In this document: piece after piece, positions 40,692 through 49,058 of the stretch | How positions within the stretch are numbered: the stretch's first letter is position 1 | Layout: each line of letters starts with the position of its first letter | Assembly: GCA_010093745.1 (NCBI GenBank) | Contig: MU005987.1 | Span: forward strand, 62,001 to 126,000 | DNA from: Piedraia hortae CBS 480.64 | Lineage: Eukaryota | DNA: 64,000 nt | Direction: 5' to 3' | Notes under the pieces: model-generated | The model's input: the letters and a program-made list of their open reading frames with translations, nothing else | What the model was told of the DNA's origin: nothing | The model's database searches: none | Program-made: the position numbers and the translations under genes

Positions 40692-43337
40692 TTATACACC
40701 AACCCCTACGCCCTCAAATCCCCTCTTCCTCATGAACGACAACGTCCTCTCAAAATGCTTCTTCGCATTATCCAGGCCCGACGAAGGCGTATTCCCCGCC
40801 GAAGCGGCAGTCGCAAGATTACTCTCAATCAGCTCAATCAAACCAGAGAGGTATTTGGACGTGACAGCTTCGTTTTCCTGTTCGTAGTAGTATGCGTATC
40901 GGTTTAAAATTTCGATAAAGAGTTCGACCGAAACGGATGTGTCCATGCATGCGTCTGCTACTCGGAGAGCGCGTTGGAGGCATTCTAGGACTCGCTTCCC
41001 GTCACGGTAGGTTTGTGGTTTGGAGGTTTCTTTTTGATCATCGCTTCCTTCGGCTTTGGTTTCGGATTCTGATTCGCTTGGGGGTTCGGAGTCGATGACA
41101 TCAGATGTCCACCATAGATGACTGGCGAGATAGACGGCTCGACATTGATCGGGCTTTTTGAGCAATTTGCTTCCGTGTAAGGCCGTTTTGGTGATGAGAG
41201 TGTCGTAGTTATCCCGGCTGAACCGTGAAGAGCAGCCCATGAGGGCACCTGCGATGGCGCAGATGGCTTGGTATTGGCTCCGAGAATCGCTGATGCTCTC
41301 TTCGTAGATGGTGAATGCTTGTGCAAAGCTCTCGTATGCTACGTCCTCGTTCATGCAGTGACTGGATACCTGTCCGCATGAGATGAAGAGGCGTAGGACC
41401 AGGTCCGGCACGCCGGGAATAGCGACACGGGAATAGAGCGAGGTGAGGATGGAGTGGGCAAACTTCCAGAGCTGACTGGCGTCTGTGGATGTGTCTTTTT
41501 GAACGTGCATGCGACGGGCGAGTTTGAGACAGGCGGTGATGAGTGCGGGCGATGTGTATCTCGTGCGCTCGTTGCCTTCGCTAAACTCTGTGCGCGTGAG
41601 CTTTAGAAGCTCAAACTGAGTGCTGTTGTCAGATGCACCAAGCAGGTGCACCATCCGCGCGAGCCAGCCTTGCTCTTCAATCATCTCGTCCGTCTCGACT
41701 GCTGCCCTCCGGATGGCACCGCTGTAGCTTGAAGGCGTTTGCATGCCTTCTTTTATTAATACAGAGAGGATTTTGAGCACGCCCTCAAGCTGCTCGGGTG
41801 TGGTAATTTTTGTTTCTGTGCGTAGCAAAGTGCGCGCTACTTCACCGGCGACGGCGCGGCGTGTCGGATATGTCTGCTGTTGGTAGAGGGGGACAAAATG
41901 AGGCAGGGCAAGTGCAGTAAAGAGGGAGCAATATGCCTTGATTGGTGCCTGCAAAAGGCCGAGGAGGTTGGCCTGTGCTGGCTGCGAGTGCATATCGGCT
42001 GAGTTCTGAAAGCGAGAGACTTCGTTCGATGCGTGGCGAAGGACCTGATCGACGTAGTCCAGCCGTTCGGGGTAGATGCTGATGGCGAGGTTCATGAGGG
42101 AAAGGAGAAGAGCGGTGATATCCTGAATCGGTAATTGCTGAATGGTGACGACTTGCACAATCTGATCATAGAAGATTTCAAACAACTTGACGTTCTCCGG
42201 AATGCCTTTGGCACCCTCTCCATCCGACGTGACTGCGCCATCCACCGTCTCGCTGGACTTATCAGCCTCTGGCACATCAGTTTTGTCCGTCTCTGCCTTA
42301 TCATCCTCGGCTGTCTCAGACTTGGCTTCGTTCTTCAACTTCAGCTTTTCCAGGGCCGAAACAGCTTCATTCTCCAGCTTTTGTTTATCCTCGGCTGATC
42401 TTGGCTCCGCTTCTCGCGTGGCATATGCCGACAGACGGTCCATGAGGCCTATGACGATGGACTTGACGTTTACATTCGGATTTAGCTTGGCTGTGGCCGA
42501 GAGAAATTGATCGAGGGTATGCAGATGATATTCGTCCGGGAACACTTGAGTGATGACCTCGAGCAGGTATTCCTGAGCCAGAACATCGCGGCACTGGACA
42601 ACCTGCTCCAAGAGCGGCTGGAGGATGGAGTTCTTGTAGCTTTGAAGGTCAACAAGCTGGCTAAGCCTCACTAGATTGCTACCAACTAGCAGCTGCAGCT
42701 CCTGGCGCTCTTTTGTGCGCAAATCCCGCTCCCTTGACGGACCCTGATGCTGCAGCCGCACCCATAGCTTGTTCATCTCGACAAAATTGGTCAGCACGAA
42801 GTTCGTACTGTCCTGTAGATTTCCCTGTGGCCCATCACCGGAGCCCGTCGGCACATGGTCTCGCGCTTGGCCGCTGAGATAGTAGCGCAGGAAGAGGCCT
42901 CGCACGGGGTGCTGCACGCCGCGACTCATCTCCATCATGTCCTTCATGATCTCTTTGACAGGCGCATCCTCAATGCCCATGTAAACAGTTCCAACCGTGA
43001 TCATCAGGTACAGACGCGGCACGACGTTGCCGGCATACTGCACGAGCTCGTAGAGGTCGGCCAAGTGGTTCGTCGGGTGCGAATCGCGCAGGTAGATAGA
43101 AAGATGGCGTAGCGCATCAAAGACTGCCATATAGAGCTCATAATATTGCTTCGGTCCAAGGCTTCCCGTGCGCAGCTCCGACACCAGAGTCGAGCTGCAC
43201 TTGAGGGCGTCCATGAGCTTCCCAGGCGTCTCCAGACATCGGCGCATCTGCACAGTCTGCTGGCGCACAACCCCAAGCGCTTCCTCCAACAGACGCGCCT
43301 GGTCCTCGGGCGGCGGCGGCGGCGGCAGCGAGGCCAT
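40692..43337 (-). CDS. VPS35: Retromer subunit Vps35
   Basis: LMDALKC, ELRT..LGPKQYYELY, LYELVQYAGNVVPRLYL, QHPVRGLFLRYYL, KRVLECLQRALRVAD. Intronless. Confidence 0.97.
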   Translation of the reverse strand: MASLPPPPPPEDQARLLEEALGVVRQQTVQMRRCLETPGKLMDALKCSSTLVSELRTGSLGPKQYYELYMAVFDALRHLSIYLRDSHPTNHLADLYELVQYAGNVVPRLYLMITVGTVYMGIEDAPVKEIMKDMMEMSRGVQHPVRGLFLRYYLSGQARDHVPTGSGDGPQGNLQDSTNFVLTNFVEMNKLWVRLQHQGPSRERDLRTKERQELQLLVGSNLVRLSQLVDLQSYKNSILQPLLEQVVQCRDVLAQEYLLEVITQVFPDEYHLHTLDQFLSATAKLNPNVNVKSIVIGLMDRLSAYATREAEPRSAEDKQKLENEAVSALEKLKLKNEAKSETAEDDKAETDKTDVPEADKSSETVDGAVTSDGEGAKGIPENVKLFEIFYDQIVQVVTIQQLPIQDITALLLSLMNLAISIYPERLDYVDQVLRHASNEVSRFQNSADMHSQPAQANLLGLLQAPIKAYCSLFTALALPHFVPLYQQQTYPTRRAVAGEVARTLLRTETKITTPEQLEGVLKILSVLIKEGMQTPSSYSGAIRRAAVETDEMIEEQGWLARMVHLLGASDNSTQFELLKLTRTEFSEGNERTRYTSPALITACLKLARRMHVQKDTSTDASQLWKFAHSILTSLYSRVAIPGVPDLVLRLFISCGQVSSHCMNEDVAYESFAQAFTIYEESISDSRSQYQAICAIAGALMGCSSRFSRDNYDTLITKTALHGSKLLKKPDQCRAVYLASHLWWTSDVIDSEPPSESESETKAEGSDDQKETSKPQTYRDGKRVLECLQRALRVADACMDTSVSVELFIEILNRYAYYYEQENEAVTSKYLSGLIELIESNLATAASAGNTPSSGLDNAKKHFERTLSFMRKRGFEGVGVGV

Positions 43338-43360
43338 TTTGATCCGAGTCGAGGTGATGA

Positions 43361-44209
<849 letters not shown>

Positions 44210-44302
44210 TAATCATCAATACATTAATCATTGTTGTCTATTTACATCTATGCCGCTCCAGTGCTGCACTAGCAGAGCGTGATCAAAACTCCCATCTATG
44301 TT

Positions 44303-44326
44303 ATGCCATGCCATGCCATGCCATGC
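44303..44326. repeat. (ATGCC)n microsatellite
   Basis: About 4.8 copies between the convergent 3' ends of DPM1 and the KEP gene. Confidence 0.8.
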
Positions 44327-44391
44327 TTCCATGCGTCATGCTCTATGCTTTCTGTTTTCCCATGCCACCATTCCTCCATTAACATCATAAT

Positions 44392-45003
44392 TTACTCAAA
44401 GCGAGTCTCGTTCCAGCTGACCACATTGATGGCCGTAGGGGCGGCGCGGGCGGTAATGAAGCCACTGGGAACCATAAGGATATTACCCGTCGAATCAGCG
44501 CGCTTGTTGTAGTAGACGGCGGTGCCGGTGGGAGCTGAGCGCTTGAAAACGGCGGTGCCAGTGCCGACCTCACGCTTGAAAACAGCAGTGCCGGTGCCAA
44601 CCTCACGCTTGTAGAAGATGCCCGTGCCGGTAGGGACCATACGCTTGTAGTTCTCGATCGTCGAAGGTTTGATGGGGTACGACGTGTGCCATTGGCCGTT
44701 GTCGTAGTACGACGTTGCGCTGGGAGTAGGCGTCGTTGTCACGGTAATCGTCGTGGGCTCCACAGAAGTTGCGACGCTGGCAGACTTGAAGCTGGGCTCA
44801 ACCGTTACCGACACCGTCTGGGATGCATCCGAGGTGATCGTCTTGTACACGGTGGTAGGAAGGTTGGAGACTGGCGACACGGCGGAGGTGGATGTGGAGG
44901 CACCAGAGCCGTCGACGTCGACCACAGAGTAGCTGACCCTCGGAAGAGCGCTGGTCGAGAAGGCGAAGAGGGCGGTAATGAAAAGAGTGCGCGTAAAGGC
45001 CAT
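44392..45003 (-). CDS. Secreted Kex2-processed repeat protein (KEP-type peptide precursor)
   Basis: Signal peptide MAFTRTLFITALFAFSTSA, Ser/Thr-rich linker, YYDNGQWHTSYP block, then five KR sites delimiting four 9-11 aa peptides with a GT[GA] core. Confidence 0.8.
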   Translation of the reverse strand: MAFTRTLFITALFAFSTSALPRVSYSVVDVDGSGASTSTSAVSPVSNLPTTVYKTITSDASQTVSVTVEPSFKSASVATSVEPTTITVTTTPTPSATSYYDNGQWHTSYPIKPSTIENYKRMVPTGTGIFYKREVGTGTAVFKREVGTGTAVFKRSAPTGTAVYYNKRADSTGNILMVPSGFITARAAPTAINVVSWNETRFE

Positions 45004-45745
45004 GAGTGTTGTTGATTAATGTGGATGTTTGGTGTAGGGGGTGTTGGTGCAAGTGTTGTAGGATGTGTGTTGAGTGTTGGTATTAAAGATTAGAAGAGTG
45101 CGTGTAGAGTGTTTGAGTGAAGAATGCAGCAGCGTCGCCGCGTCCTCGCCTTTATCGCGGCCATGGCCAGCGAGGCTGGGAGTGAATGGCGTCGTCGTCG
45201 TCATGTTGAGGTGGTGAATGGCTGGGTGCTGGAAAATACGCGCGCCGTGCCCCGCTTTACGCCGGGTGGCTGGTCACTCCAGCTCTGTCACCAATCCCTG
45301 TTACGGGCCGTCACTGGAACCTGACGGCTGTCTGCCCAGCCATGTTATAGTCTAGACACGCTATGGCAGTTTCATCTCTTAAACTCTGTCCAACTTGGGC
45401 TTAGAGGCCTTCGAGAAGAGGGCAGGCTGGTTAGCGGAGTGGTTGGCCCTGAGACGTTGGGACAACGTCACACCCAATAACCAGTGCAAACAGCCCCTAA
45501 AGCATGGATGACGGACGTTGAGATGGTAACGTCGGGTACCTGTTGCCTGGCGCACGCTTCCATGTCTCGGCACTGCCGAGACACAGACAATTTGCCTAAG
45601 AGAAACCCACCTATTGACAGCAGCTTTTCATGATCGCTCTGCAGTACGTAAAGATTTCGCAGAGACACTGACTTTGCACGATCAACAACACACAAAAAGT
45701 TAGGACTGTGCCATGAAGGCATTCTTCATTTGCTTTACCCACTCT

Positions 45746-46372
45746 TCACCACTGTCCCTTGACCAATCTTGTCAGCTCAGGAAAGGTCCCATTGAACACA
45801 CTCCAGTCCTGACGCTCTTTCTTCTTATATTGCCAGAAGGTATAGTTTGTCCACCCACCAGGTATAGGCCCCAGGGTAGGGGCATAGCTTGCTAGCCAAA
45901 AGTAATTGGTCTTAGCCAATTATTTTTATCATCTATTCATCTGATCTGACCAGCGCCTGATCCAATCAACTGTGATCTTGCTGCACTCCTCTGATAAGTC
46001 TCTTTTAAGGTCAAGCACAGCTGGAAGTGTCAGGCCATTGTCAACCCACAGCCCACCGTGATTGTAAACAAAGTCTTGGACTTCATCCATTGGGTCGTTT
46101 ATCCTATTGCCAAAGTGATAAGCTCCATGGTATAGGTCGGCCGCTCTGGCACCGGCTAACAGATTCTCAAAGCATGGGTTCGGAGAACCTATGCCACGGT
46201 TTGCCCTGATTAATACAAAGTGCGCACAGAGACGCTTGATGGCCTCGAAATCTCAACTGTCTCCGTATTTCGACATACCAGTCCCTAAGACTTGATTTGC
46301 CTCTGCATCGTTAAGCCCAGGCAGAGCGAAAGCCGTCGCAGTAAGAGTAAAAAGGGCCAAACTGAGCTTCAT
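45746..46372 (-). pseudogene. GH25 muramidase (Chalaropsis-type lysozyme) pseudogene
   Basis: One frame of 209 codons: signal peptide MKLSLALFTLTATAFA, FVLIRA, GAYHF, HGGLWVDNGLTLPAVLDL, WLASY, IPGGWTNYTFWQY, FNG. In-frame stops at 46253-46255, 45929-45931, 45926-45928 and 45920-45922. Confidence 0.88.
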
Positions 46373-46801
46373 TGTGACTGCAGGTGCTGAACGAAGGAGG
46401 TAGAAAGCTTATCTAGTCGGTCCATGGAGAGACGGGCAAGGACAAGCGACTACCCACTCGCCAAGCAAAAAAGACCAACATTGCCCTTCCCTGAGGACCA
46501 ATTTACCTGGTCCTCCATGAATTGTATGCACGGCCGCAGTGCTGCCTGTTACTGATCCTCTTCCAAAGCCCTGTGGAGGCGCAGTCGTCATTTGAGATAT
46601 CACTTGGATCTGAAAACCACTGTGTTGCTGGACAACTGAGCAGCTTCATCGCACGCCTCTCTGCGATCTGTGCAGACTCTTATTGAACATTAGCTACAGT
46701 TCAAGTAGGCAGTCACATCCTCAGTTCATCGTCTCATCGTCTCATTCCTCCCGCCCCCAAGAAAGGTCCATCGTTATTCGTAGCCATACACCGGTCAAAC
46801 A

Positions 46802-47098
46802 TCACAATGATACCTTCATATTCCTGGTCTCTCCTGCCTTCAATTTTTCTGCAAGCACCGTTTTCTTGTCGGTATCCTTGAACCCCAATTCTTCATCGTT
46901 CGGCTCCGTCAACACTCGAGTGATGGTCATGCAGCCTCCAACCAGGACGTTCAACCCCGTGACGTTGACGCAGATGGCCGCGTCGCGGAACCCTGCAAGC
47001 TCCACGCAAAGGCTGAGGAGGGCGAGAGCGAGAGCGAGAGAGGCTCGTAAAGGAGTGGGAAAATCGAACGTTATGTTGAATGACATGAGTGAGGTCAT
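46802..47098 (-). CDS. Possible small membrane protein (98 aa)
   Basis: ATG ORF MTSLMSFN.. with two hydrophobic segments and a charged tail. No family recognised. Confidence 0.3.
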   Translation of the reverse strand: MTSLMSFNITFDFPTPLRASLALALALLSLCVELAGFRDAAICVNVTGLNVLVGGCMTITRVLTEPNDEELGFKDTDKKTVLAEKLKAGETRNMKVSL

Positions 47099-47624
47099 GG
47101 TGCGTCGAGCCGCATGTATTGTTGCGGCGATGAAAGCGATGAGTTGGGTCTTAGAGGAGTCCAGGCGACGTTGGCAAGGCTGAGGCGCATTGGGAACTTT
47201 AAACCCCACTCTGCTTTCGCCAAGACGCGCAAGTACACTTTTGCTCAAAAGATAAGGGTTGTCAACTGCGCAGCGGCTTGGGTTTGCTTATCATCAGGAG
47301 GCTATTAGATCTAGTAGGGAGTGGTTTGGCATGATCGAACAGGCAAGACTTGTTTGTCGCGCCTGAGGTAAAAGCAAAAGACACGTCGGTCAACATGAGC
47401 AAAGTCTTTCTTTTTGAGGCCAGACCCTGATTCCAGTTGGCAAACGTCATCTTTCAGCTATAGTTGAGTGCGTGCTAAAAAAAAGAAACGTATCCGCTAA
47501 ACAGTACACCCGGTTACCGTCGTGTAATAACATCCAATTGGAATTTACATGTAACGCACTACGAACCTCACCAAGAACTGAACCTGAATGGCAGAGCTAC
47601 TCCAGAACCACACTCATTTCAAGC

Positions 47625-49058
47625 ATGTCCTCGACAGCATCATCGCGCGCGCTAGATTACCTTGAGCTGCTCCCTGGTACCACTTTCCTTAAGCTCTATC
47701 GTCAACCGTCAACATGTCTCGCAATCTTCCGGCGTATGCTGCCACATCTAGCCAAAACCCTTGTAATGGCTCTTCTCTATATGCCTGAGCCTCTCTCAAG
47801 GTCTGATCTTCATATGTGGTTCAAAAATGATAACGCCAGTTCGAGCGCGCGCACCAGAGCAATCAGCATTCTACAACGACTGCGAATCCTTTTTGATGCT
47901 CGAGATGCCAACAGTAAATCTGCCTATGTCCTCAGTACAGAGTTCAGCAAAGGTTTGCGTCTGGCTCTGACAGGCGGTGGTCAACATTACAGCTTTGGCG
48001 TACCCAGCCATACTCCAGATACGAACCCGCCTGACATAGCAGACCTGGATATATTCGCTCGCCAACGCTGGGAAGCCATACTATATTTTGTCGCAGGAAG
48101 CTCAGGCCTCGGTTTTGTTGACACAGTAAGGCCAAGCGCAAGCACAAAACAAGTCCTAACCGATGCCCGATTTGTCGCCGGATCGGTCAACAGCCCCAGG
48201 ATTACCAAAGAAGGGTTCGAATTCCTACTCCAAGACGTGAACACGCAGGTCTGGACCCTTCTAATCAAGTATCTATCCATGGCAGATAAATTAGACATGG
48301 ACCAAGTCGAAACCATGACCTTTCTCTTTATGCTAGGTAGCGCAGAATTGGGCATGGGCTACGCCCTACCTGCCGAGAACGAGCACAGCTCCAACCAGTC
48401 AAAACTGCTTAGCGATCTACAAGATTTTGGCTTAATCATGGTCCGCGGGGAACGATATTACCCTACCCGTCTAGCAACCACACTAACCAACGATGCGCCC
48501 GCCCTACTCAGCACAACAAGTGGCTCAGGAAAAGGCGAGGGAGAAAAGGGCTTTGTGCTTGTGGAAACCAATTTCCGTCTCTATGCATATACCTCATCAC
48601 CCCTCCTCATCAGCATCATACAACTCTTCGCTGCCTTGCGAACACGCTATCCTAATTTGATAACTGCAAAGATCACCAAGTCGTCTGTTCGAAGAGCAAT
48701 GGAAGCTGGCATCACCTCTGATCAGATCATTTCCTACCTGCAGACTCACGCGCATCCTATTGTTCGTCGCCAGGTGCCGTCATTGCCGCATACTGTGGTC
48801 GATCAAATACGGCTTTGGCAGATCGAGGGCGAGCGTATGGTTACCAATAGTGGTTACCTGATCAGGGACTGCGGCTCTGAGCAAGATTTCAACAAAGCTG
48901 TGGAATATGCTGATAAATTGGGTGTGCTGAAGAAGACCTTTAAAACAAGAGGATCCTTCTTCGTCACCAGGATGGACCAAATGCAGGAATATTTCAAGGC
49001 GGAAGCGAGAAACAAAAAGGAGGCGGAAAGAAAAAAGACTGGTGGTCGATTGGATTAA
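47625..49058 (+). CDS. TFB2: TFIIH subunit Tfb2 (p52)
   Basis: LYRQPSTCLAIFRRMLP, ITKEGFEFLLQD, YYPTRLA, VETNFRLYAYTSSPL, TVVDQIRLWQIE. Confidence 0.96.
   Translation: MSSTASSRALDYLELLPGTTFLKLYRQPSTCLAIFRRMLPHLAKTLVMALLYMPEPLSRSDLHMWFKNDNASSSARTRAISILQRLRILFDARDANSKSAYVLSTEFSKGLRLALTGGGQHYSFGVPSHTPDTNPPDIADLDIFARQRWEAILYFVAGSSGLGFVDTVRPSASTKQVLTDARFVAGSVNSPRITKEGFEFLLQDVNTQVWTLLIKYLSMADKLDMDQVETMTFLFMLGSAELGMGYALPAENEHSSNQSKLLSDLQDFGLIMVRGERYYPTRLATTLTNDAPALLSTTSGSGKGEGEKGFVLVETNFRLYAYTSSPLLISIIQLFAALRTRYPNLITAKITKSSVRRAMEAGITSDQIISYLQTHAHPIVRRQVPSLPHTVVDQIRLWQIEGERMVTNSGYLIRDCGSEQDFNKAVEYADKLGVLKKTFKTRGSFFVTRMDQMQEYFKAEARNKKEAERKKTGGRLD

Follow-up and report, generated by a model that had tools for sequence, protein, structure and literature searches.

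The minus strand at positions 45746-46372 of the window (the whole 64-kb stretch analysed, positions 1-64000) carries a GH25 muramidase pseudogene in a single exon, which comprises 208 codons plus a terminal TGA and contains four internal stops. A sequence-only reading had proposed this translation, these coordinates and the four in-frame stops, all of which we reproduced exactly. The frame opens with an ATG and a signal-peptide-like hydrophobic N-terminus (approximately codons 1-16; 46325-46372, minus strand), read by eye, which resembles the starts of three GH25 genes elsewhere in the genome, L001-L003. The pseudogene sits in a 2.6-kb gap that extends from a gene for a secreted Ser/Thr-rich repeat protein (44392-45003) to TFB2 (47625-49058), and close to it lie VPS35 and a DPM1-like GT2 glycosyltransferase gene, which we take to be DPM1. 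No other DNA-level copy of the 2.1 kb around the pseudogene exists in the genome, and its flanks show neither transposon ends nor notable repeats. The window as a whole is a very compact, intron-poor, housekeeping neighbourhood.

Other features border this gap or lie within it. The minus-strand gene at 44392-45003 encodes a secreted-looking Ser/Thr-rich protein of 203 aa, in which four repeats of 33-36 bases correspond to Lys-Arg-delimited units of 11-12 residues. This protein has no Pfam family above cut-off, its Atlas matches all fall below 0.9, and it resembles Kex2-processed repeat proteins. Upstream of the pseudogene, two small ORFs overlap (46802-47098, minus strand, 98 aa; 46923-47183, plus strand, 86 aa), neither of which has a Pfam match.

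GH25 muramidases cut the MurNAc-GlcNAc bond of bacterial peptidoglycan via a D-x-E pair. The frame had been assigned to this family from its motifs, with a HMMER search named as the check, and the assignment held: the Pfam profile PF01183 (Glyco_hydro_25) matched the read-through translation, with X at the stops, at 64.3 bits (cut-off 27, E 2.4e-17). In a search of PDB sequences, all four matches to the translation were GH25 muramidase chains (E 1.8e-22 to 1.6e-11), the best being the fungal 6ZMV, 6ZM8 and 2X8R. A fold search with a model of the read-through product (pLDDT 80.9), which relies on aligned GH25 homologs, listed at E <0.001 only matches that are GH25-type lysozymes or lysins by title. 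In a homolog search with the X-containing protein alone, none of 498 word-sharing candidates reached E 0.001, which we attribute to a sequence too diverged for that index and do not read as evidence of novelty. Taken together, the profile, the sequence and the fold agree that this frame is a GH25 gene by descent.

The best sequence and fold matches are the Chalaropsis-type N,O-diacetylmuramidases TzMur of Trichobolus zukalii (6ZMV), AaMur of Acremonium alcalophilum (6ZM8) and AfMur of Aspergillus fumigatus (2X8R), with TM 0.66-0.71 and 26-29% identity in structural alignments. Like these enzymes, the pseudogene encodes a single secreted catalytic domain with the same order of motifs. In contrast to them, it has three conserved acids replaced, including the catalytic Glu, lacks strand 5, a helix and a Cys through deletion, and carries four stops. 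Streptomyces coelicolor cellosyl (1JFX) and the actinobacterial GH25 enzymes have family and fold in common with the pseudogene but are more distant from it than the fungal homologs.

We scored the conserved acids against two sets of homologs, namely 239 outside proteins, which a filter (45% identity over 185 residues) retained from 268 fetched, and a further set of 114 that are mostly fungal. In fungal GH25, catalysis is assigned to the pair Asp95 and Glu97 of the D-x-E motif (PMC7954357). The corresponding motif of the pseudogene (46004-46012, minus strand) reads D-L-K, such that D121 is kept and the Glu, present in 237/239 and 114/114 homologs, is replaced by K123. At codon 32 (46277-46279, minus strand), the strand 1 Asp of G-x-D-x-S, which every one of the 239 and 114 homologs retains, has become Gly (G32), and at codon 59 (46196-46198, minus strand), the Glu of K-A-T-E-G has become Arg (R59), a position that is Glu in 229/239 homologs. 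The invariant C-terminal Asp is kept (D189). The earlier statement that both catalytic acids are lost therefore stands for the two positions it had named (G32 and K123) but not for the D-x-E pair, of which D121 remains. By every functional feature tested, the product is predicted from its sequence not to be an active muramidase.

The description of the gene as full-length fails between the helix Trp and strand 6, a stretch that measures 22 residues in the pseudogene as opposed to 41-42 in its four paralogs, 36-43 in the 239 homologs and 42 in all 114. The P-x-x-Y...W-W...C stretch is missing, as had been suspected of a P-x-I-Y-T..WW segment. Residues 162-181 of L002 have no counterpart in the pseudogene, and in the L002 model (pLDDT 90.7) they comprise a strand (165-168), a helix (170-177) and Cys176, which indicates that the deletion removed barrel strand 5, the next helix and a Cys that is invariant in the family. 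The read-through model has seven strands of at least three residues versus eight in the intact L002, and both the eight-stranded (beta/alpha)5 beta3 barrel and the conserved Cys pair are incomplete. Even a full read-through product would thus lack both the catalytic Glu and strand 5 of the barrel.

Alignment places the net 60-base in-frame deletion at the A+T-rich codons 145-151 (45920-45940, minus strand), which also hold the stops at codons 148, 149 and 151. Relative to the paralogs, there is also a one-codon in-frame insertion at about codon 103 (46064-46066, minus strand) and a two-codon in-frame deletion ahead of the C-terminal Asp codon 189 (45806-45811, minus strand), such that all three indels preserve the reading frame. 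A frameshift-aware codon alignment gave a best path without frameshift in 8/9 settings, which bears out the earlier claim of no frameshift in the sense that there is none net. Seven of the nine settings place one 20-codon deletion, one places two deletions with stops 148-149 falling on the conserved Trp-Trp, and one explains the codon-40 stop by a compensating pair of small indels. Since the stops at 148, 149 and 151 lie within four codons at the deletion, they need not represent three separate events.

We also assessed whether the stops are real. The first is the TGA at codon 40 (46253-46255, minus strand), which leaves a 39-residue product and has identical letters in two sequencing runs, X1 and X2; the others are codons 148 TGA, 149 TAA and 151 TAA. 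Run X2, a separate sample and study, provides one contig at depth 685 that covers 43519-47055 with no other letters, no gaps and no joints, and run X1 provides one contig that covers 43300-47046 and is equally free of all three. The depth of X2 contigs varies (685 and 315), a difference to which we give no weight. The contigs of both runs break at a short repeat at about 47026-47125, where X2 has minor variant contigs. The divergent gap between VPS35 and the GT2 gene (43300-43518) is covered by X1 and bare in X2, which an RNA library would fit but which proves nothing.

Because the contigs of the two runs match the window letter for letter across the gene, the stops and the other lesions are in the DNA of the strain. 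An assembly or sequencing artefact over a truly intact gene would gain some credit from the possibilities that X1 supplied the assembly and that X2 derives from the same strain. However, X2 comes from another study and shows no differing letter or gap at depth 685, X1 is alike, and base-calling errors do not yield changes at 16/76 fixed sites together with a 60-base deletion. The agreeing contigs refute the artefact for this strain, which leaves that explanation with next to no probability.

The same contigs bear on whether the gene might be alive, with its stops repaired in RNA by A-to-I editing, read-through or splicing. In favour of this, two of the stops align with the conserved Trp-Trp in one of the nine alignment settings, GTATGT at codon 32 resembles a donor consensus from which splicing to codon 62 or 73 would keep the frame, and X2, which is RNA only by guess, covers the locus. 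In-frame candidate introns include 13 (8 with GT donors) that could remove the first stop and 6 (2 with GT donors) that could remove the stop cluster. However, those with GT donors all excise GH25-homologous coding sequence, and neither run's contigs, which would drop rare variants, contain a splice joint or any other letter, which agrees with the earlier statement that the gene has no intron. Furthermore, no RNA process can restore the 20 missing codons. Correction of premature stops is described in PMC11156358 as a UAG to UGG change with U preferred at -1, in Sordariomycetes and one Pezizomycete, with its range elsewhere open. The editing-rescued 'pseudogenes' of Fusarium graminearum resemble our case in having in-frame stops without net frameshift, but they feature UAG stops in otherwise conserved genes, whereas the Piedraia pseudogene has no TAG among its four stops, has lost catalytic residues and bears a structural deletion. 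Rescue in RNA is thus extremely improbable.

The extent of decay was gauged from 59 columns that are each at least 90% conserved in the 239 outside homologs. The pseudogene spans 54 of these columns and keeps 30 (0.56), as compared with an outside minimum of 0.73, values of 0.84-0.90 for L001-L003 and 0.67 for a fourth and much more diverged paralog, L004. Among fixed codon positions, 16/76 are changed (d approximately 0.25), a count that omits codons 89-104, where the aligner shifted register, and the deletion site, and that becomes 21/82 with them; the same leave-one-out count gives 0-2 differences in L001-L003. Simulated random mutation of that size produces 3.8-5.4 stops per 200 codons, and four are seen. 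When the clustered stops are treated as one event, the probability of at most one stop is 0.03-0.11 at d 0.2-0.25. The pairwise DNA alignments between the pseudogene and its paralogs are too noisy to date it.

One route to such a state would be repeat-induced point mutation (RIP), which would have killed the copy quickly after duplication. Both G+C at third positions (0.51 versus 0.61-0.75 in L001-L003) and CpG observed/expected (0.51 versus 0.91-1.14) are low in the pseudogene, and the C-to-T and G-to-A changes of RIP can create TAA and TGA stops. However, C>T and G>A account for only 5 of the 16 changes inferred, and transitions (9) do not outnumber transversions (12) in the count made before the mis-registered stretch was removed. 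In each of the window's 64 one-kb bins the composite RIP index lies below zero, with values of -0.44 and -0.71 at the pseudogene, and the surrounding 2.1-kb region is without a DNA-level second copy. The base changes and the negative indices argue that RIP is not the cause, which makes it very improbable, and with approximately 0.25 changes per fixed site the decay is instead consistent with neutral drift.

Another possible history has two steps, in which the copy was first translated as a catalytically dead secreted peptidoglycan binder, or otherwise repurposed, and acquired the deletion and the stops later. The start, the signal peptide and the terminal stop are in place, 3/3 indels are in frame, the replacement of several conserved acids took two or three base changes, and the deletion site holds all stops but one. 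The single outlying stop and the in-frame indels suggest that part of the divergence may predate the loss of selection on the frame. Nevertheless, drift predicts four stops if all are counted, the losses extend to structural Gly and Pro and to further conserved residues that are not catalytic, and intact homologs as well as L004 carry small in-frame indels in the same loops. Moreover, an unbroken frame is also the reason that the gene could be spotted from sequence in the first place. On balance, we consider a two-step history unlikely.

A search of the genome (16.9 Mb, 132 contigs) identified five GH25 loci among six candidates scored, which are the pseudogene and L001-L004 on four other contigs (L001 on C9, L002 on C20, L003 on C58 and L004 on C46), all above the Pfam cut-off. 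L001-L003 have an open frame, a signal-peptide-like start and all conserved acids. They share only 48-66% identity with one another, and most outside fungal homologs sit on shorter branches. The N-terminal extensions of the three are dissimilar, and that of L003 has an acidic, pro-like segment some 55 residues long. The fourth paralog (L004:1411-2108, minus strand) keeps the D, D-x-E and C-terminal Asp and has no stop in its domain. However, the domain is not in frame with the ATG and signal peptide, which points either to an assembly error or to a young lesion that would make L004 a second pseudogene; its public model is labelled 'partial'. Among proteins labelled as Piedraia hortae GH25, L002 is identical to one, a second is contained in L003, and a third matches the domain of L004 on inspection by eye. 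Identity between the pseudogene and the paralogs is 33-36%. The GH25 domains of the paralogs are likewise intron-free, and so the loss of introns cannot serve to distinguish duplication from retroposition, and the flanks no longer show DNA-level homology.

This count bears on two readings that had been offered as alternatives, namely that the fungus has lost an antibacterial enzyme or that the gene is a dead duplicate. We found no evidence for the loss of the only antibacterial muramidase, and against it stand the four further GH25 loci, three of them intact, such that the first reading has virtually no probability left. A search of the genome for an intact paralog, proposed at that stage, thus returned three, and the second reading is strengthened by these intact copies together with the disabling lesions and relaxed constraint of the pseudogene. 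Piedraia hortae is hair-dwelling and, according to PMC7082219, has the smallest genome and the fewest genes (7,572) of 101 Dothideomycetes. Table 3 of PMC7954357 shows more than one GH25 for several fungi, and GH25 counts, read by eye, are 0-3 in 16 fungi (PMC3893384 supplement 3, part 1 of 2). Against those 16 tabulated fungi, four or five copies at 7,572 genes would be at the high end. GH25 counts are absent from the supplements of PMC7082219, six genera of related or skin fungi looked up by name in one CAZyme table have no rows there, and a literature search, whose coverage excluded subscription papers, found no paper on Piedraia GH25 genes or pseudogenes.

We next consider how the five copies are related. 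An Asp-Pro that follows the Y-H motif is present in 5/5 own copies and in only 1/239 and 1/114 outside homologs. The loop from Cys to Trp is 7-8 residues in the five copies, a length found in 0/236 and 3/113 scored outside homologs, and it measures 11 residues in 233/236 of the mostly bacterial set. However, in the 113 scored of the 114 further homologs the loop is 11 residues in 77, 10 in 19, 5 in 14, 7 in 2 and 8 in 1, and this variation among mostly fungal homologs makes the short loop a weaker marker than first apparent. A column test showed that the pseudogene shares 0/13 residues private to the paralogs, although three of those columns fall in the Asp-Pro stretch, where the aligner was out of register by one.

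In a tree with 29 chosen outside sequences, which include Hortaea, Cladosporium, Zasmidium, Polychaeton and Acrodontium, the five copies form one branch (92/95, unstarred) inside a starred ascomycete branch (100/99), and the four paralogs still group when the pseudogene is left out (SH-aLRT 93). Support for the five-copy branch was 67/68 and 74/66 in a smaller, poorer-sampled tree, and in a first tree (123 rows, quick stage) long branches met. The branch of the pseudogene itself is very long (3.9-6.7). AU tests on the smaller tree rejected no placement, whether with L004 (p 0.36), with L002 and L003 (p 0.42) or with bacteria (p 0.26), and the sister copy therefore cannot be named. Taken together, the Asp-Pro motif and the tree grouping support the pseudogene as a probable dead member of a lineage-specific GH25 expansion.

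The sequence-only reading had also pointed to a proposed entry of GH25 into fungi from bacteria, and had suggested a phylogeny with both. That background is published: PMC4241558 describes a transfer that was ancient and preceded the split of the Dikarya, with weakly supported deep branches and with actinobacterial GH25 lysozymes as the proposed donors. For this locus, the phylogeny yielded the ascomycete branch (100/99), but a bacterial placement was not rejected in the smaller tree. Grouping with ascomycetes and with its own paralogs gives no sign of a new transfer, and the pseudogene adds nothing to the question of the bacterial origin of fungal GH25.

Our preferred explanation, which we hold with high but not complete confidence, is that the pseudogene is a dead duplicate of an expanded, inherited GH25 muramidase, which drifted neutrally and from which no enzyme is made. 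An ancestor would have expanded an inherited secreted GH25 muramidase to at least five dispersed, fast-diverging copies, one of which became dispensable and drifted by approximately 0.2-0.3 substitutions per site. Drift would then have removed the catalytic Glu, two other conserved acids and 20 codons with one of the eight barrel strands, with stops gained along the way, the first of which would leave only the signal peptide and some 23 residues. Muramidase activity would presumably be supplied by the intact copies. In this account, the data establish the family, the lesions, the existence of the paralogs and the reality of the stops, and the order of events, the neutrality and the activity of the paralogs are what we infer.

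A bolder picture, which is possible but doubtful, is that of a lineage-specific, fast-turning arsenal of antibacterial muramidases in a gene-poor hair fungus, of which three are intact, one has a recent or spurious frameshift and one is dead, with copies at 33-60% identity under competition from hair and scalp bacteria, and in which the pseudogene was once a secreted dead binder. By itself, the pseudogene changes nothing, as unannotated dead paralogs are common, and it represents ordinary gene birth-and-death within a small, fast-evolving family that is mildly interesting. As a marker, it brings the number of GH25 loci to five in a small genome and indicates a family that is turning over. If the intact copies are active against different bacterial targets, they would offer a tractable case of a fungus that invests in antibacterial enzymes while shedding genes. 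If active, they would furthermore be new divergent members of an enzyme family that, according to PMC7954357, is used in animal feed.
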